A DNA stretch of 64,000 nucleotides from an uncultured Chitinophaga sp. (GTDB lineage: Bacteria; Bacteroidota; Bacteroidia; Chitinophagales; LD1): the NCBI GenBank assembly GCA_964615305.1, contig CAZTNA010000001.1, forward strand, positions 382,793 through 446,792, read 5' to 3'. A model generated the notes under the pieces. The model did not search any database. It had not been told where the DNA came from and saw only the letters and a program-made list of their open reading frames with translations. The position numbers were made by a program, and so were the translations under genes. Of the stretch, positions 9,112-33,566 are shown one piece after another. The stretch's first letter is position 1, and each line of letters begins with the position of its first letter.

Positions 9112-11004
9112 TCATACGGCACCTTCTAAAATAATATTCACTATGCCGGGATCGAGTAGTGTACTCGTATCACCCAAATTAGAGGTATCGCCTTCGGCAA
9201 TTTTTCTGAGTATTCTGCGCATAATTTTGCCGCTACGTGTTTTTGGTAACCCCGGTACCAACTGAATTTTATCCGGTCGGGCAAAAGCTCCAATTTTTTC
9301 CGCTACAATCTTTTTTATCTCTTGGTGTAATGTCTCCACATCTTCTACCTGGCTACTGCATATCACAAAAGCGTATATACCTTGCCCTTTTATGTCGTGA
9401 GGAAATCCAACAACAGCTGTTTCAATTACCAGTTCGTGTTCATCAATGGCGTCTTCTACTTCACCGGTACCAACGCGGTGTCCTGATACATTAATTACAT
9501 CATCTACTCGACCCGTTATGCGGTAATAGCCATCTGCATCTCTTCGGCAGCCATCGCCTGTAAAATAATAATTTGGGTATGTGGCAAAGTATGTTTGCTG
9601 AAAGCGTGGATGGTTGCCATATACGCTACGTGCCATACCAGGCCATGGAAACTTAATACATAAATTGCCCTCTACATAACTACCCTCTATTTCTTCTCCC
9701 TTTTCGTTTAGCAACACCGGTTGAACACCAGGTACTGGCAAAGTGGCAAAAGCCGGTTTAAGAGGGGTGACGTTTGCTATTGGGGAAATAAGCACACCAC
9801 CTGTTTCTGTCTGCCACCAGGTATCCACTATGGGGCATTTTTCTTTGCCAGCATTCTTATTGTACCAATGCCATGCTTCTTCGTTGATAGGCTCACCAAC
9901 TGAACCAAGCACCCGCAATGATGAAAGATTTTTGTTCCTGAAAACTTCATAGCCATACGTTTGCAGCGAGCGGATGGCTGTAGGTGCAGTGTAAAAAATA
10001 TTTACTTGGTGTTTGTCAATCACATCCCAAAAGCGCCCGTGGTCCGGGTAGGTGGGTATGCCTTCAAACATAACTGTAGTTGCGCCATTCAGCAACGGGC
10101 CATAAACCAAGTACGAATGACCTGTTACCCAACCCACATCTGCAGTACAGAAAAATATCTCCTGCTCGCGGTAGTTAAACACGTTTAAAAAAGTATAACC
10201 TATATATACCATGTAGCCCGCTGTAGTATGCAGCACCCCTTTGGGCTTTCCGGTACTGCCGCTGGTGTAAAGAATAAACAAAGGGTCTTCGGCATCCATT
10301 GCCTCTGCACAATGCTCTACTGAAGTATTGGAAACAACATCGGTCCACCAGATATCTCTGCCTGCTTTCATTTCTATATCACTCCCTCTATGATTATACA
10401 CCACACAATTTTTTATTGAGGGTGTATTAAGCATTGCTTCGTCAGCTATATTTTTTAACTCAATTTTTTTCTCCCCCCTAAAAAAGGCATCTGCAGTAAT
10501 CAGTAAAGAACATCCGCTGTCGTTTATCCTATCAATAAGAGAGGTGGATGAAAAACCGGCAAACACCACCGAATGTATAGCCCCAATTCTAGTGCAAGCC
10601 AACATGGCAACTGCTGCTTCGGGCACCATTGGCATATAGATGCAAACACGATGGCCTCGTTGTACGCCAAGATTTTTAAGGGCATTTGAAAAACGACATA
10701 CTTCATTATGCAATTGATAATATGTTAGGGTTCGGAAGTCTTCATCCGGATTGTTTGGTTCCCAAATGATGGCTGTTTGATGACCCCGTTTTTCGAGGTG
10801 CCGGTCTAAACAATTCTCACTTAAATTACATTCAGCACCATTAAACCATTTTATACTCGGTTCCCTGAAATTCCATTCTAGAACAGAGTTCCATTTTTTC
10901 TTCCATAGAAAACTGTCAGCTACTTCAGCCCAAAAAATTTCAGGATAATCTACACTGCGCTTGTATTCGCTCAAATATTGTTCAAAGTTGGTAATTTGAA
11001 TCAT
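9112..11004 (-). CDS. acs: acetyl-CoA synthetase (acetate--CoA ligase)
   Basis: Start set at ATG 11004 (MIQITNFEQY...). Carries the AMP-binding motif YTSGSTGKPKG plus WWQTETGG and PKTRSGKIMRR. Confidence 0.96.
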   Translation of the reverse strand: MIQITNFEQYLSEYKRSVDYPEIFWAEVADSFLWKKKWNSVLEWNFREPSIKWFNGAECNLSENCLDRHLEKRGHQTAIIWEPNNPDEDFRTLTYYQLHNEVCRFSNALKNLGVQRGHRVCIYMPMVPEAAVAMLACTRIGAIHSVVFAGFSSTSLIDRINDSGCSLLITADAFFRGEKKIELKNIADEAMLNTPSIKNCVVYNHRGSDIEMKAGRDIWWTDVVSNTSVEHCAEAMDAEDPLFILYTSGSTGKPKGVLHTTAGYMVYIGYTFLNVFNYREQEIFFCTADVGWVTGHSYLVYGPLLNGATTVMFEGIPTYPDHGRFWDVIDKHQVNIFYTAPTAIRSLQTYGYEVFRNKNLSSLRVLGSVGEPINEEAWHWYNKNAGKEKCPIVDTWWQTETGGVLISPIANVTPLKPAFATLPVPGVQPVLLNEKGEEIEGSYVEGNLCIKFPWPGMARSVYGNHPRFQQTYFATYPNYYFTGDGCRRDADGYYRITGRVDDVINVSGHRVGTGEVEDAIDEHELVIETAVVGFPHDIKGQGIYAFVICSSQVEDVETLHQEIKKIVAEKIGAFARPDKIQLVPGLPKTRSGKIMRRILRKIAEGDTSNLGDTSTLLDPGIVNIILEGAV

Positions 11005-12026: not shown

Positions 12027-12467
12027 ATGATTTTTACCGATGAATACTTTATGAAAATGGCTTTGAAAGAAGCCTTGTATGCCTATGAGGAAGATGAAGT
12101 GCCCGTAGGAGCTATAGTGGTAGCCAACAACAAAATAATTGGAAAAGGCTACAACCAAACTGAAAAACTAAAAGACGTAACAGCCCATGCCGAAATGATT
12201 GCTATAACCGCGGCAGCTAATTATCTGGGGTCTAAGTTTCTGGAGGACTGCACTTTGTATGTTACCCTTGAACCCTGCCTGATGTGTGCATCGGCTATTG
12301 GTTGGGCTCGAGTTGCACGATTGGTGTACGGAGCTTACGACCCTAAAGCAGGTTATTCGTTAGTTAAAGGAAGGGTGCTTCACCCCAAAACTGAAATTAC
12401 CGCAGGTGTAATGGAAAATGAATGCTCAGTTTTAATGACAGATTTTTTTAGGGCTAAGCGCAAGTAG
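12027..12467 (+). CDS. tadA: tRNA-specific adenosine deaminase
   Basis: Start at ATG 12027. Carries the CDA zinc motifs HAEMIAI and PCLMCASA. Confidence 0.92.
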   Translation: MIFTDEYFMKMALKEALYAYEEDEVPVGAIVVANNKIIGKGYNQTEKLKDVTAHAEMIAITAAANYLGSKFLEDCTLYVTLEPCLMCASAIGWARVARLVYGAYDPKAGYSLVKGRVLHPKTEITAGVMENECSVLMTDFFRAKRK

Positions 12468-12555: not shown

Positions 12556-13161
12556 ATGGCTTTTACACTCCCTGCACTTCCTTATGCCAACAATGCGTTG
12601 GAACCACACATTGATGCCCACACTATGGAAATTCACCACGGTAAACATCACAATGCATACGTAACTAATTTAAACGCGGCATTGGCAGGTACCGAAAATG
12701 AGGGCAAACCGCTTGAAGAATTAATGGCAAACATCTCTAAACTGCCGGCAGCAATTAGAAACAATGGTGGCGGCCATTGGAACCACACTTTTTTCTGGAA
12801 TATCATGGCCCCTAACGCAGGAGGCAATCCTACAGGTGCGCTGGGTGATGCTATTAATGCAACTTTTGGTTCATACGATAATTTTAAAGCAGAGTTCGCT
12901 AAGGCAGCAACTACACGCTTTGGCTCAGGTTGGGCTTGGTTGTGCGTATGCCATGGAAAGTTAGCTATTTGCTCTACACCTAACCAAGACAATCCGTTAA
13001 TGGATATTGCAGAATGTAAAGGCACTCCGGTACTTGGTTTAGATGTGTGGGAGCATGCCTACTACTTAAACTATCAAAACCGCAGACCAGACTATATTAC
13101 CGCTTTCTTCAACCTCATTAACTGGGAACAGGCCAACAAGAACTTTGCTTCAGCAAAATAG
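12556..13161 (+). CDS. sodA: superoxide dismutase (Fe/Mn family, Mn-type residues)
   Basis: 201-aa ORF with the signature [25 protein letters not shown] and NQDNP suggest the Mn type. Confidence 0.95.
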
Positions 13162-13261
13162 TTTACAGAAGTATCCGTTAATCTTATTGCGCGTTGGTTA
13201 CGCGCTATCAGTTTTACCGGAGGGGTAAATTTTTACCATACTTTCGCACGGTCAATAAACA

Positions 13262-13939
13262 ATGAAGAAGAAAATAAAGATTCACAAAGAGGGGCATAAG
13301 ATACTTTTTGTGTCAGGTGTAGCTCTACTGCTTACCAATGTGATTATTGCTTTAGTATTTAGACAGAAAGAGGTGTACTACATAACAGGTGCAGTATCCC
13401 TGATAATACTGGTTGCATTTGCCTCGTTTTTTCGCATTCCTTACCGTAATTTTTTTACCGGTAGCAACCAAATTGTAGCACCAGCCGATGGCAGGGTAGT
13501 AGTAATAGAAGAAGTGCACGAAGGAGAGTATTTTAACGATAAGCGCATACAGGTGTCAATTTTTATGAGCCCGGCTAACGTGCATGTAAACCGAACTCCA
13601 ATTAGCGGGGTGGTAAAATATCAGAAGTATCATCCGGGTAAATATCTAGTGGCTTGGCATCCTAAATCGAGTGAAAAGAACGAACGTAATACGATTGTGC
13701 TGGAGCATGATGAGTCAGACGCTGAAATTTTAATACGCCAGATAGCCGGTAAACTTGCCCGAAAAATAAAGTGGTACCTGAGCGAAGGCGATGAAGTTGA
13801 GCAAAATGCCGAGCTAGGGTTTATTAAATTTGGGTCACGGGTTGACCTTTTCTTGCCTGTAGGCACAAAAATAGAGGTTGATTTGAAACAAAAAGTTAAA
13901 GGAGGCATTACAGTTATTGGAACTCTGATTGAAGATTAA
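13262..13939 (+). CDS. psd: phosphatidylserine decarboxylase family protein (short form)
   Basis: 225-aa ORF with N-terminal TM helices and the self-cleavage region LGFIKFGSRVDLFLP. Confidence 0.85.
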   Translation: MKKKIKIHKEGHKILFVSGVALLLTNVIIALVFRQKEVYYITGAVSLIILVAFASFFRIPYRNFFTGSNQIVAPADGRVVVIEEVHEGEYFNDKRIQVSIFMSPANVHVNRTPISGVVKYQKYHPGKYLVAWHPKSSEKNERNTIVLEHDESDAEILIRQIAGKLARKIKWYLSEGDEVEQNAELGFIKFGSRVDLFLPVGTKIEVDLKQKVKGGITVIGTLIED

Positions 13940-30674: not shown

Positions 30675-30713
30675 TGCAAACGGGCTGTGGCCAACAGGTA
30701 AGTAGCCAAAAAC

Positions 30714-30746
30714 AAAAAAGCCTCCGGAGTTTCCGGGGGCTTTTTT
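30714..30746. terminator. bidirectional terminator between convergent genes
   Basis: AAAAAAGCCTCCGGA-gtt-TCCGGGGGCTTTTTT: a 9-bp stem with one mismatch, flanked by A6 and T6 runs. Confidence 0.72.
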
Positions 30747-30797
30747 GTGTATATGCGCTGGAGTGGCTGCCGGCAAATAATAAAGAGCCGGGGGCCA

Positions 30798-33299
30798 TTA
30801 CACTTTTAAAAAACCCAACTCATATACCATGGGTTGCAGTTTTTCGGTGAGGGCATCGTAGGCGGCTTTAAAGGCAGCGAAACTCACCGGTGGCAGGTCG
30901 CCACTTTTGTTGCGGGCTTCGAGGGCTTTGCGTATTTGATACCAGCCGGCATCACTTCGGTTTAGTTTAAGTTCATCGCGCACGGTGCGGGTATCGGTGT
31001 GGGCAAAGTAGGCCTGCCATAGTTTTTTGCCTTCGGCTAAAACCGCCTGCGCTTCCGCGCTAAACGGGCTGTTGTCATTGCGAGGAAGCCCCGCTTTGGG
31101 GGCTGACGAAGCAACCTCGTCTTTGCTTTTGGTGGGGGATTGCTTCGCTCGCAAAGCCTCGCTCGCAATGACATCCTCTTTATTTATGACAGGCAGGTTT
31201 GCTATATACCTTACCATAAAATCGCTCTCGAACCTATCGGGTGCGCCTACCTCGGCTTCGGTAAAGGGTATAAAGTGGTTGACTATGCTCCACTTTTTGT
31301 TGTTCCACTCTAAATCGTTGGCACCGGCAGTAAGGTTGCTGCCGTTAAACAGCATCCATATTAAGCAGTCGCTTTTAAATTCTTCTCTTAAAGGTTTTGT
31401 AGGTTGTAAGAACTGGTCGCGATTATTAATCCACGTTGGTTTGATAATTCTACGCATAGTAAAAACAATTACAGCTTGCCATAAATTTTCCGGAGTGACA
31501 TAGAAACCATTTCCGGTACTGAATACTGATGATGTAATTGCCGTTTGCTTTGTTGCATTTTGTATGTCATTACTATTACAATACATATAACCAATTGCAT
31601 CGGTAAACCATGATGTTACTTTGGCGTGATTCTCTTGTGGACTAATTGCATTTTTAAGAGGAATGTTTGTGCTGTCAGTTTTTATTCGAGGCATCCAGCC
31701 ACTCAAAAAGGTTTTACTCGGTATATTATAGAAGCGTTTTTCACCAATTGGTTCTACATCTTTATTCAAAACTTCAACTGAAATTTCAGTAATAGGAGTT
31801 CTAGTTTTTGCTTTTTGGTCTGTCTTCCAAACTAAAAAACCAATTGGAAACTCACCTTTTAAACCATCGAATGCTTTACTGTGAACAATAAAGCCATCTA
31901 AATATTTTGCATTCCAAACTTCCCTAAACTTTTCAAAGTTGGGTGCATTCACATATTTCAATGAGCTAAACATCGCTATTGTAGCATTTGGAATTTCATT
32001 GGTGATTCTAGCTAAAAATTGTGTGTATAATTCTCGCGCTGCAAAACCATACTCTTGCATATTGCTTCCAACTCTTGTAGTAGCTACATCCGTTTTTCCT
32101 TCATTACCTTGTGAGTTTGCCGCCTCCGCATAAGGCGGGTTCATCAGCACCAAAAGTTTTTTGCCTTTGGCAATGGCATCGCGCAGTGCTTGGGGTAGTT
32201 TGTTGGTAAGGGTGTAGTCTATGGTTCCATCATCAGTTATATCATCATTCAAATAATCGTATTGAAAGCGCGTGGCGGCCACACAGGTTTTGGTGGCGCG
32301 CATTACATCTATATCAGCGGCATCGAGGGTACTCATAAACACATTGCGGGGGTTGCTGTGTTTAACTTCGAGGTTGCCCACGCCACAGCACATATCCCAC
32401 ACTATGTATTCGCGCTGCCAGTTGTTGCCCAGGGTTTCGGTGAGTTTGTCGTAGGCCTTGTCCACCACATTAAGCGGGGTGTAATACGCGCCTTTAAAGC
32501 TGCGCTCGTCAATGGGTATTAAACTGTCGCGCCTTTCTAATAAATAATCGCGGTAGGTTTCTTTGGGCGGGCGGTGGTAAATAGCCCAAAACTGGCGGTA
32601 GCCCTCTTTGTTGCCCAGCTCGTACAGTTTGCCACCCAGCATAAACACGGGCTGGTTGTTGCGGTGCAATAACTCGGCAGGTAAATTTTGGTGGGTGGCT
32701 ACGGTGCCATCGCTCATTACATCGGCAAAAAAGAGGAGTGCGTAATCTTCTTCTTTTACCTCTTTTATTTCGCGGCCTATCATGGCTACCCATTTATCAA
32801 AAACCTGCTTCAGGTTATCGGGGGTTATTTGCGTGCGTATAATATCGCCTTTGGCAATGGCAGCTTTTACGGTGCTTATAAATTCGTCTTCGTGGGTTTC
32901 TATTTTAAAACTTACAAAGTGGGTGCCTATGTGGGCGCTTATGGCATCGAGGGCTTCTTGCGTATAGCTGCTGGCGCTTTTGCCCCACTTAATGGTTTTT
33001 TTTTCTAAGAAGGGTATTACATCGGCACTTTTCATAATAGCCGCTTTGCGGGTGTCTATTACACACAAAAAGGGCGGCACGGCTTCGCCTTTGTTAAGCG
33101 CCTGCTGCACATAGTGCATCAGTTGGGTAAACATGGCGTAGGTAGAATGAGAGTAGCCGTCTTTGGCCTCAAACCATATTTCTTTGGTTTGTATATCAAT
33201 CAGGTTTTTGCTGTAGCCTTTTAAGCCCAGGGCTTTTATGTAAGCGTCTTTAACGTCTTCTTCGGTGCGGGCGTTTTGCAGTTTGGCGTAGAGCGTCAT
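30798..33299 (-). CDS. putative single-chain Type IIG-like restriction-modification enzyme (N6-adenine methyltransferase with N-terminal nuclease-like motif)
   Basis: Start at ATG 33299 (the track uses TTG 33311). Gamma-class motif order: X is SFKGAYYTPLNVVD, I is VWDMCCGVGN (32373-32396) and IV is LMNPPYAEA (NPPY at 32130-32141). The N-terminus has D35 ... E44-A-K46 (33162-33197), resembling PD-(D/E)xK. About 400 aa follow motif IV. Confidence 0.65.
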   Translation of the reverse strand: MTLYAKLQNARTEEDVKDAYIKALGLKGYSKNLIDIQTKEIWFEAKDGYSHSTYAMFTQLMHYVQQALNKGEAVPPFLCVIDTRKAAIMKSADVIPFLEKKTIKWGKSASSYTQEALDAISAHIGTHFVSFKIETHEDEFISTVKAAIAKGDIIRTQITPDNLKQVFDKWVAMIGREIKEVKEEDYALLFFADVMSDGTVATHQNLPAELLHRNNQPVFMLGGKLYELGNKEGYRQFWAIYHRPPKETYRDYLLERRDSLIPIDERSFKGAYYTPLNVVDKAYDKLTETLGNNWQREYIVWDMCCGVGNLEVKHSNPRNVFMSTLDAADIDVMRATKTCVAATRFQYDYLNDDITDDGTIDYTLTNKLPQALRDAIAKGKKLLVLMNPPYAEAANSQGNEGKTDVATTRVGSNMQEYGFAARELYTQFLARITNEIPNATIAMFSSLKYVNAPNFEKFREVWNAKYLDGFIVHSKAFDGLKGEFPIGFLVWKTDQKAKTRTPITEISVEVLNKDVEPIGEKRFYNIPSKTFLSGWMPRIKTDSTNIPLKNAISPQENHAKVTSWFTDAIGYMYCNSNDIQNATKQTAITSSVFSTGNGFYVTPENLWQAVIVFTMRRIIKPTWINNRDQFLQPTKPLREEFKSDCLIWMLFNGSNLTAGANDLEWNNKKWSIVNHFIPFTEAEVGAPDRFESDFMVRYIANLPVINKEDVIASEALRAKQSPTKSKDEVASSAPKAGLPRNDNSPFSAEAQAVLAEGKKLWQAYFAHTDTRTVRDELKLNRSDAGWYQIRKALEARNKSGDLPPVSFAAFKAAYDALTEKLQPMVYELGFLKV
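31074..31172. repeat. 99-bp nested palindromic (REP/MITE-like) element lying in frame inside the methyltransferase CDS
   Basis: Terminal inverted repeat GTCATTGCGAG (31074-31084) / CTCGCAATGAC (31162-31172). Inner inverted repeat GACGAAGCAA (31105-31114) / TTGCTTCGCT (31140-31149). Hairpin AGCCCC..GGGGCT at 31087-31104. Tandem CGCTCGCAA at the right end. It encodes aa 710-742, VIASEALRAKQSPTKSKDEVASSAPKAGLPRND. Confidence 0.7.
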
Positions 33300-33516
33300 G
33301 CAACAAAACAAATAATCAATTTACAATAAACAATTATTGCCCACTCCGAAAAAACTATTGCCCGGTTAGCGCGTATGCGCAGAGCAATTAAATGCAGCCC
33401 CCCCGGGCAGATGCGCTTTGGAGGAAAAAGGGCGTTGGTTTTTTTAAAACACATCTAATACAATAATTTCTGCCCTTGTGGGGGTGTAGTTCCACCAATA
33501 ACAGAAAGCAGTCAAA

Positions 33517-33550
33517 CAAAAAAGCCCACGCATTTGCGGGGGCTTTTTTG
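33517..33550 (-). terminator. Rho-independent terminator after icd
   Basis: GCCCACGC-attt-GCGGGGGC stem-loop flanked by A and T runs, just downstream of the icd stop on the minus strand. Confidence 0.7.
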
Positions 33551-33566
33551 TTCTGTGAATTGCAGT

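Follow-up and report, generated by a model that had tools for sequence, protein, structure and literature searches.

How did a palindromic DNA element come to lie, in frame and free of stop codons, inside a gene for a restriction-modification-like protein? The question is raised by a 64,000-nucleotide stretch of DNA from an uncultured Chitinophaga sp. (assembly GCA_964615305.1, contig CAZTNA010000001.1, positions 382,793 to 446,792; hereafter the window), in which a first-pass annotation had described one nested element of 99 bp with terminal inverted repeats. We consider it likely that the element is a head-to-head dimer of repetitive extragenic palindrome (REP)-type units, REPIN-like in architecture and carrying a CGTC/TGTC tag, which landed in a linker of the host gene, was inherited and remodeled there, and is translated as a linker. 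CGTC-tagged REPs form a superfamily defined by Di Nocera, De Gregorio, and Rocco (2013, BMC Genomics 14:522; PMC3733652). Positions below are those of the window unless a locus is named; loci carry L numbers and proteins P numbers.

Architecture of the element

The palindrome consists of two REP-like units of approximately 35-43 nt, here called A and B, which stand in inverted, tags-out orientation on either side of a 21-nt spacer. The terminal inverted repeats that had been reported as 11 bp (31074-31084 and 31162-31172) are present and extend to a perfect 12 nt (TGTCATTGCGAG/CTCGCAATGACA, at 31073-31084 and 31162-31173). They are the 5′ ends of two inverted units, and the single nested element bounded by terminal repeats thereby gives way to a dimer with a spacer. 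The TGTC tag occupies 31073-31076 and its complement 31170-31173, and the tails read CCC in unit B and CTC in unit A. The inner segments measure 14 nt and 22 nt; unit B has the arms ATTGC...GCAAT, as does the consensus, and unit A shows one mismatch (GCAAC). The type to which unit A belongs, a long variant with compensatory changes in the stem, also occurs in L001, L189, and L205.

Other details of the original description fared unevenly. The GC hairpin and the tandem copy are both present (31087-31104 and 31142-31168), and the 99 bp do begin on codon position 1 of the minus-strand gene, without a stop, and encode VIASEALRAKQSPTKSKDEVASSAPKAGLPRND (aa 710-742). The inner inverted repeat, given as 10 bp, proved perfect over 8 nt (CGAAGCAA/TTGCTTCG, at 31107-31114 and 31140-31147) and reaches 11 pairs only if G-U pairing is allowed in RNA.

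A profile hidden Markov model (HMM) of the unit, trained on 120 independent units from viral contigs, returned only 31136-31173 (minus strand, E = 2e-7) and 31072-31118 (plus strand, E = 1.4e-5) in the 64-kb window, the next match having E = 0.5. As sense-strand RNA the element folds at -47.4 kcal/mol (z = -4.9; as DNA, z = -4.05), and none of 200 shuffles folded as well. The bare pair of 11-mers is weak, at least two matches with no more than one mismatch being present in 15 of 100 shuffles.

Insertion, linker, and downstream domain

Most homologs of the host protein are 789-795 residues long (about 791) and lack the segment, by which the window protein is longer between the conserved stretches FMV[QR]Y[LIM]xx and KxLSxEA. 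The expectation of a frame-preserving insertion, to be seen as a clean indel in an alignment of homologs, is thus borne out relative to most of them, the added segment amounting to 42 aa (aa 702-743) and not 33. In the AlphaFold2 model residues 707-742 have a predicted local distance difference test score (pLDDT) of 27-36 and are followed by a confident helical domain (748-827); by this model the insert sits in a predicted disordered linker ahead of the conserved C-terminal helical domain. The suggestion that the insert separates or modulates a helical tail is consequently upheld as to separation of the tail from the body of the protein, and no evidence of modulation was found. In their last 85 codons, insert-bearing genes resemble one another more at codon position 2 (identity 0.84-0.94) than at position 3 (0.47-0.69). 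This purifying selection, in the same frame, suggests that translation through the insert has been maintained.

The sequence of events that we propose begins with a dimer landing between domains of a solitary, horizontally highly mobile type IIL-like gene, in a linker that is predicted to be disordered and would be the one poorly conserved part of the protein. Versions that shifted the frame or held a stop would be lost, since the protein needs its C-terminal helical domain attached. The insert would then be inherited with the gene and remodeled by the gain of extra units, by the 18-nt and 14-nt duplications, and by deletions. Translated, it would form a hydrophilic linker of 42 aa in which A, S, P, and K abound and which is probably near-neutral for the enzyme, and an incidental effect of the strong hairpin on mRNA stability or on the passage of ribosomes is possible. 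The mode of mobilization and the neutrality at the protein level are what we infer; we know of no transposase for the CGTC REP superfamily.

Table 1. Features of the host gene and its insert in the window, and inserts at the same linker in homologs
Feature	Position or locus	Strand	Description and basis
Host gene	30798..33299	minus	Intact open reading frame, 833 aa; solitary single-chain restriction-modification-like protein
C-terminal helical domain, aa 748-833	30801..31058	minus	pLDDT 74-95, helical; downstream of the insert
Full insertion relative to 791-aa homologs, 126 nt / 42 aa	31071..31196	minus	Encodes LPVINKED + VIASEALRAKQSPTKSKDEVASSAPKAGLPRND + N (aa 702-743); alignment of 120 homologs, invariant columns
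Head-to-head (tags-out) REP dimer	31073..31173	.	The 99 bp described earlier plus the T of each TGTC tag
Unit A, long variant, antisense to gene	31074..31116	plus	GTCATTGCGAG-GA-AGCCCCGCTTTGGGGGCT-GA-CGAAGCAAcC; relaxed pattern match and HMM
Inner GC hairpin of unit A	31087..31104	plus	AGCCCC / loop GCTTTG / GGGGCT; 6 outer-in pairs; sequence read and fold
Spacer between units A and B, 21 nt	31117..31137	.	From unit coordinates
Unit B, degenerate, sense to gene	31138..31172	minus	GTCATTGCGAG-CGAGGCTTTGCGAG-CGAAGCAATC; carries a 14-nt tandem duplication
Tandem duplication within unit B	31142..31168	plus	GCTTCGCTCGCAA / GCCTCGCTCGCAA, period 14 nt; direct-repeat families D1 and D3
Window-specific 18 nt	31173..31190	minus	GTC ATA AAT AAA GAG GAT (VINKED); repeats the unit's GTCAT start; codon-level comparison with L001, L002, L003
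Linker insert	L175 (dimer); L150 (single unit)		Unit family of the window
Linker insert	L188, Methylophilus		CGTC-1 dimer
Linker insert	L163, Rickettsiales metagenome-assembled genome (MAG)		Another GTCAT-tagged dimer
Linker inserts			CCCCTCC..GGAGGGG types; GGTTTTGAAAACC types
Linker inserts	L179, L198		PSPQPSPRGRGS-type betaproteobacterial repeats
Linker insert	P0033		REP-like VGRMSAALSD..NAALIRPT peptide
Linker insert	L173, Paludibacter MAG, 12085-12330		216-nt tandem array, SHQMTE repeats (SHQMTESHQMSNNA), from palindromic word CATCAGATGA

The repeat family

The unit turned up in at least 120 stretches when viral contigs were scanned for exact matches to the pattern GTCATTGCGAG-N(4-30)-CGAAGCAATC. 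Its general form is YGTC-ATTGCGAG-centre-CGAAGCAAT-CYN, in which the centre, bracketed by tandem G.A, is either a GNA mini-hairpin of the d(GCGNAGC) type or a longer, variable hairpin. Among the matches listed, most units are 26 nt (GTCATTGCGAG-CGAAG-CGAAGCAATC) or 32 nt (..GAG-GAGCGAAGCGA-CGAAG..) long, and the middle loop base of the GCGNAGC centre is free (A 30, C 12, T 10, G 8). Long variants have, in place of this centre, a hairpin whose sequence varies and which usually stands between brackets of GA...GA; at least three outer pairs are formed by 43% of 103 distinct cores of this kind, versus 4% after shuffling. Across 226 units the base before GTC is a pyrimidine in 94% (T 113, C 100, G 7, A 6), GCAAT is followed by C in 97%, and the commonest 3-nt tails are CTC (81), CCA (68), and CCC (23).

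Neighboring units are arranged tags-out in 35 of 49 dimers, mostly with spacers of 19-30 nt, the remainder being tandem (11) or tags-in (3). The units are intergenic in 59% of cases, against 10% of random positions, and show no bias of orientation relative to flanking genes (49 sense, 44 antisense), which together argue for a repeat acting at the DNA level rather than for a strand-specific RNA signal. Free-standing copies occupy the positions classic for REPs and include a tags-out dimer in Novosphingobium aromaticivorans pNL2, 14 nt past a stop codon; a dimer between convergent open reading frames (ORFs) in L205, the single match of a metagenome scan with a narrow sub-variant pattern; and copies between two genes in the Bacteroidia genome L003 (4418-4511). 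Canonical units are present on plasmids of Methylosinus, Methylocystis, Methylobacterium, Novosphingobium, Halomonas, Legionella, Calothrix, Aulosira, and Trichormus, always in stretches without a listed gene in the incomplete gene table of PLSDB, and also in records of uncultured gut phages; one Novosphingobium resinovorum replicon has at least 40 such places. The family, which the first-pass annotation took for an intergenic palindromic repeat of Bacteroidota, is therefore real, widespread, and mainly intergenic, and its range takes in Alpha- and Gammaproteobacteria, Cyanobacteria, and viral contigs as well. Between Bacteroidota, Cyanobacteria, Proteobacteria, and phage contigs the ATTGCGAG...CGAAGCAAT unit hardly differs.

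With the 126-nt insertion as query, BLAST gave no match in plasmids or phages, the window units being too diverged and too short; canonical 34-35-mers did match. Rfam returned no family at the units, either in the element region or in five viral loci rich in canonical units, and a full-text literature search for unit strings produced only chance primer matches. A reading of the GAG...CGAA core as a hammerhead or other ribozyme was rejected: by inspection the CUGAUGA core is absent, and Rfam had no match.

Some copies in viral loci show other arrangements. L050 contains a head-to-tail array of four copies (2695-2818) with an exact period of 33 nt (a 25-nt unit plus 8 nt), and a further head-to-tail array is found in the viral contig L024 (28-101). 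Six units lie on the same strand in L019 (3339-12744), four of them preceded by the word ttctttag, and in viral loci a few units stand directly upstream of a ribosome-binding site and ATG. Two other inserts at the linker of the host gene, in L170 (2524-2620; GTCACCCTGAGCCTGTCGAAGGG) and P0066 (VTLSEVEA, by back-translation), have the layout GTCA, a 4-5-nt stem, GAG...CGAA, and the complementary stem, with CCCT/AGGG as the stem compared to TTGC/GCAA in the unit. This common layout hints at a wider structural superfamily.

The linker as an insertion site

The window gene is not alone in carrying extra sequence here. Inserts of 7-53 aa are found at this linker in 26 of 120 protein homologs, and it is the sole hypervariable insertion site in the protein, other indels in the 120 homologs being differences at the N-terminal start or a uniform 6-7-aa indel of one clade. 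Twenty-five of 77 species-representative genomes have 3-216 extra nucleotides at the linker, all in frame and stop-free, and nearly every insert is a hairpin repeat (Table 1). Where the flanks allow a check, the insert belongs to the host's own repeat family in three clear cases and possibly more. In L188 a second canonical CGTC-1 dimer lies approximately 500 nt downstream of the gene and 930 nt from the linker copy, and in L125 the linker repeat recurs at least three times within 7 kb.

Because the junctions vary between loci (L175 has its insert directly after YLA; L127 after Y, with a second hairpin after EA), several of the insertions are independent. One clade of close relatives contains four different insert families. 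For 27 insert-bearing sequences, parsimony on a neighbor-joining (NJ) tree required 20 or more gains or losses, a count that is weak since the tree is star-like and the gene mosaic. The 'xLP' start common to many inserts hints at a lineage with an expanded linker.

Two inserts have structures of their own. The left part of the insert in L003 (8095-8140) is a degenerate first unit interrupted by a small palindrome, GTC-ATCCGATCGCTATCGGAT-GCGAG, that is, a hairpin nested in a hairpin. The repeat making up the array in L173 is also present at 1620-1740, 9540-10020, and 12900-13560 of that locus, which has an N-terminal fragment of the gene 8 kb upstream.

One may ask whether the linker DNA, or a palindrome already resident in it, is actively targeted by hairpin-type repeats of unrelated REP families and not merely tolerant of them. 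Occupancy of a single site in 25 of 77 genomes and 26 of 120 proteins would be in keeping with targeting, as would the many unrelated hairpin families (some of them the host's own, as in L188 and L125), the four families within one clade, the palindrome nested inside a unit in L003, and the independent events implied by the junctions of L175 and L127. The linker is, however, also the sole non-conserved stretch, such that a pure survivorship filter would look no different; the inserts revealed neither a common target motif nor a target-site duplication; and the shared 'xLP' could mean common descent of one expanded linker. Added to this, the NJ tree is weakly resolved, the gene is mosaic, and the comparison covers this gene family only. 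We regard active targeting as possible but doubtful.

Equally tentative is the notion that the linker serves as an integration 'trap' for the REPs of each new host after transfer of the gene. So is a second notion, that the unit, being nearly identical across phyla, absent from Rfam, and without a known transposase, could be a single-strand DNA motif which spreads horizontally or is universally constrained, and not an ordinary REP bound to a lineage. The CGTC-1 dimers, the ATTGCGAG unit, the CCCCTCC..GGAGGGG hairpins, and others may be examples of such trapping. Were the trap real, it would imply a shared structure- or sequence-directed mechanism of insertion for otherwise unrelated REP families, and the gene would provide a natural assay for their mobilization; targeting, as opposed to tolerance, would open a route to how transposase-less REPs of the CGTC type move.

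In-frame REP insertions are a means by which selfish hairpin repeats lengthen proteins without destroying them, and the window offers a clear example outside Rickettsia, in a defense-type gene. The broader pattern carries more weight: in roughly one in three of the species that carry this gene family, a single linker holds palindromic repeats unrelated to one another, in several phyla and always in frame. The inserts record which hosts a horizontally transferred gene has lived in. They also hold a warning for annotation, in that VIAS..KQS, ..IAS..PRND, and VIPAKAGIQ within proteins are repeat-derived linkers and not domains.

Age and history of the insert

The closest homologs of the window protein are P0002 (locus L002), with 81% identity over the full length and 85% outside the insert, and P0004 (L001), with 78% and 82%, respectively. 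All three genes have the same junctions, namely LP, one or two forward units, a spacer, and an inverted unit ending ..PRND, followed by [DN][ST]P, and on sequence comparison the window insert is shown to share its ancestry with those of P0002 and P0004. Three features are found in the window only: the 18-nt insertion repeating GTCAT (VINKED), at which point the relatives read LP-VIA directly; the 14-nt duplication in unit B; and a 4-codon deletion on the right side. Since the closest homologs carry related composites and the window has no further unit, the insert was most likely inherited with the gene and not recently transposed in the source genome.

Several observations weigh against the explanation that we prefer, that of a CGTC/TGTC-tagged dimer inherited and remodeled in the linker. 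No other copy of the unit is present in the 64-kb window. Neither a transposase nor a target-site duplication was found, mobility being read from the distribution of copies only. The canonical stem of 8-9 bp and loop of 4-5 nt are not kept in the window units, whose inner parts measure 14 and 22 nt and one arm of which reads GCAAC, and the label CGTC-2, one of the families in PMC3733652, is only probable and not proven for the unit. Finally, the inverted units of the window and of L001 agree at 38 of 43 positions, with two compensatory pairs accounting for four of the five differences, although identity at four-fold degenerate sites is only 40%. On the sequences compared, such a contrast is not predicted by neutrality in situ, and needs either selection on the hairpin or replacement (gene conversion) from other copies. 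The L001 unit has an exact match in an unrelated, free-standing copy in L205, and exchange or replacement involving a homogeneous pool of copies is for that reason favored over selection in situ.

The same contrast bears upon a further alternative, that the hairpin or linker has been recruited to regulate the enzyme, whether by a translational pause for folding of the C-terminus, by stabilizing or processing the mRNA, or by tuning restriction versus modification after transfer. In its favor, none of the 25 length variants breaks the frame or contains a stop, and the stability of the hairpin is very high. Identity in the unit far exceeds that at four-fold sites, two pairs of differences between the window and L001 are compensatory, and a role for REPs as RNA elements downstream of genes has been reported (PMC3733652). 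Yet two thirds of the homologs work without any insert, and the inserts that exist range from 3 to 216 nt and are unrelated in sequence. No intrinsic terminator was detected on the coding strand within the host gene, the antisense strand giving only a weak match (31105-31121), and the units of the family have no orientation bias relative to transcription. Conservation can moreover be explained by exchange with the homogeneous copy pool, as the identity of the L205 and L001 units illustrates. Functional recruitment is on balance unlikely.

Less probable still is a recent transposition, within the source genome, of an element resembling a miniature inverted-repeat transposable element (MITE). 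The perfect 12-nt terminal inverted repeats and the clean indel relative to most homologs would suit it, but the repeats are accounted for by two inverted units, the closest homologs (78-81% amino acid identity, from other samples) have related composites at the same junctions, the window units are degenerate (14-nt duplication, GCAAC arm), and there is neither a flanking direct repeat nor a second copy in the 64 kb. A chance palindrome or low-complexity protein linker unrelated to repeats, for which the non-significance of the bare 11-mer pair might be cited, has a negligible probability and is already refuted by the independent HMM matches (E = 2e-7 and 1.4e-5), the fold (z = -4.9), and the family architecture of both units.

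The host gene

The identification of the host as a putative restriction-modification enzyme is supported. The protein has an N-terminal D35..E44xK46 and the N6-adenine methyltransferase motifs D302MCCGVGNL and N387PPY, and D302MCCGVGNL, N387PPY, D35, E44, and K46 are invariant across 30 homologs. A Pfam search of the protein gave no match, and weak matches were obtained to PADLOC MTase_II and TIGR02987, which are models of type II methyltransferases. The AlphaFold2 model (mean pLDDT 63) had as its top Foldseek match the type IIL enzyme DrdV (7lo5; E = 2e-7), at a template modeling (TM) score of about 0.2 and 13-14% identity. The model likens the host protein to single-chain restriction-modification enzymes of type IIL. 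It would share with type IIL/IIG enzymes (DrdV, the MmeI family) the order of a nuclease-like N-terminus, a gamma-class N6-adenine methyltransferase (motif I, NPPY), and a C-terminal region, encoded by a solitary gene, whereas it differs from them in its very low sequence similarity, its lack of a Pfam match, and its unusual conservation across phyla, at about 70% amino acid identity.

Homologs at this level of identity (loci L125-L204) occur in Bacteroidota, Alpha-, Beta-, and Gammaproteobacteria, Campylobacterota, Saccharibacteria, Peribacteria, Ignavibacteria, Bdellovibrionales, and others, from which we conclude that the gene is highly mobile horizontally. Such conservation together with such mobility is unusual for a restriction-modification-like gene without a Pfam family. 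No conserved neighbor gene was found among 78 loci, and candidate operon partners were rejected, the apparent clusters being antisense ORFs within the gene itself. The gene lies between housekeeping genes (glmS, icd, murB, NIF3).

Near-identical hairpins of the bidirectional terminator type (AAAAAAGCC..GGCTTTTTT) bracket the host gene at 30712-30748 and 33515-33552. Within it, a block at 31300-32100 (approximately aa 400-665) has a GC content of 0.33-0.37 versus 0.45-0.56 in the flanks. This is suggestive of a mosaic or recombinant origin, a lower-GC donor having contributed the middle of the gene.

In three of 84 homolog loci the last 35 or so codons of the gene are duplicated 540-1000 nt downstream of the intact copy (L127, 7898-8002; L137, 12965-13075; L166, 2965-3048), with small ORFs in between. 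Those of L127 encode 225 and 67 aa, and those of L137 (12384-12680 and 12664-12960) resemble, by eye, a toxin-antitoxin pair of the BrnT/BrnA type. The arrangement looks like that of small cassettes integrating at the 3′ end of the gene with restoration of the C-terminus.

Comparison with known repeat systems

CGTC REPs carry the tag CGTC, often TGTC, on a stem of 8-9 bp that starts with AT, with a loop of 4-5 nt and a tail of approximately CCA; head-to-head dimers with spacers of 20-100 bp predominate, no dedicated transposase is known for them, and copies are mostly extragenic, near the 3′ ends of genes (PMC3733652). The superfamily is listed there in five phyla, mostly in Alphaproteobacteria, and includes Neisseria dRS3 as well as Rickettsia conorii RPE-4 and RPE-6. 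By its features the present unit fits this superfamily: it has the CGTC/TGTC tag, the AT at the start of the stem, the unpaired CCA/CTC tail, and a predominance of head-to-head dimers (35, against 11 head-to-tail and 3 tail-to-tail; in the window, head-to-head with a 21-nt spacer). Dispersed, mostly extragenic copies are seen in the family; the 64-kb window holds only the one dimer. It differs in having a stem of only five Watson-Crick pairs plus tandem G.A mismatches, so that the canonical 26-nt unit (ATTGCGAG / CGAAG / CGAAGCAAT) conforms in stem and loop only if the tandem G.A pairs and one bulge are counted. In the window the 4-5-nt loop is replaced by expanded inner hairpins. Bacteroidota, Cyanobacteria, and viral contigs are additional to the range of CGTC REPs. 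The unit is probably the family CGTC-2 of that report, because CGTC-2 is described as homodimers in N. aromaticivorans, and the same species carries canonical dimers of the unit.

An in-frame insertion of this kind, well documented for Rickettsia, had been expected to be unusual here. PMC3733652, however, documents intragenic REPs in many species, more than half of them as dimers or groups encoding 20-30 aa, often in genes of DNA metabolism, and for this reason the insertion event is in itself not very unusual. The in-frame dimer in the window is a further likeness to that system. Peptides such as VIPAKAGI and SFLRKQESS..DSRFRRND are given in the paper's supplementary table of intragenic REPs; VIAS, VIAR, and KQS, which the present unit encodes, are absent from that table.

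With REPIN/RAYT systems (Bertels and Rainey 2011, PMC3116915) the element has in common two inverted REPs with a spacer, foldable into a single hairpin, and a non-autonomous population of repeats. The tag is YGTC and not a GTAG tetranucleotide at the REP 5′ end, and REPIN-RAYT systems are described as lineage-specific and vertically inherited, whereas the unit family is nearly identical across phyla. With another tag, and with no RAYT associated in the 64 kb, the element falls outside this class. A gene for a 152-aa Y1/HUH transposase-like protein (PF01797) does occur 200-800 nt downstream of the host gene in three homologous loci (L003, 8658-9116; L004, 3201-3659; L140, 10765-11211). The L003 copy is preceded by repeated GCGACCCC-NN-CGGGGTCG hairpins (GCGACCCC..GGGGTCG flanks), a REP-like family distinct from the unit. 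This Y1_Tnp was rejected as the mobilizer of the unit, as the L003 gene is flanked by different hairpins and a single tblastn query with its protein found no homolog in the 64-kb window. Membership among MITEs fails for lack of a target-site duplication, which had been named as a thing to look for: the flanks of the element (..GAGGA/TGTC...GACA/ACAGC..) have no direct repeat, and no consistent duplication was seen at other loci.

The d(GCGNAGC) mini-hairpin DNA is reviewed in PMC13037366. GCGAAGC, GCGCAGC, GCGTAGC, and GCGGAGC are the commonest cores of the unit, with only the middle loop base free. The likeness is one of sequence, and in both window units longer hairpins replace the core.

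Rickettsia palindromic elements (RPEs), to which the first-pass annotation compared the insert, likewise place a palindromic repeat in frame and so add a peptide segment at a tolerant position of a protein, the translation in the present case being read from the sequence. The lineage is different and the sequence appears to be, and the element here is a dimer of short units, whereas RPE-1, at 100-150 bp, is longer. At the present site the family of the insert also varies with the host. The analogy nevertheless fits, in that RPE-4 and RPE-6 belong to the very CGTC superfamily whose features the unit displays. Intragenic in-frame REP dimers were thus already known; what is unexpected is the occupancy of one linker, across phyla and always in frame, by different hairpin repeats.

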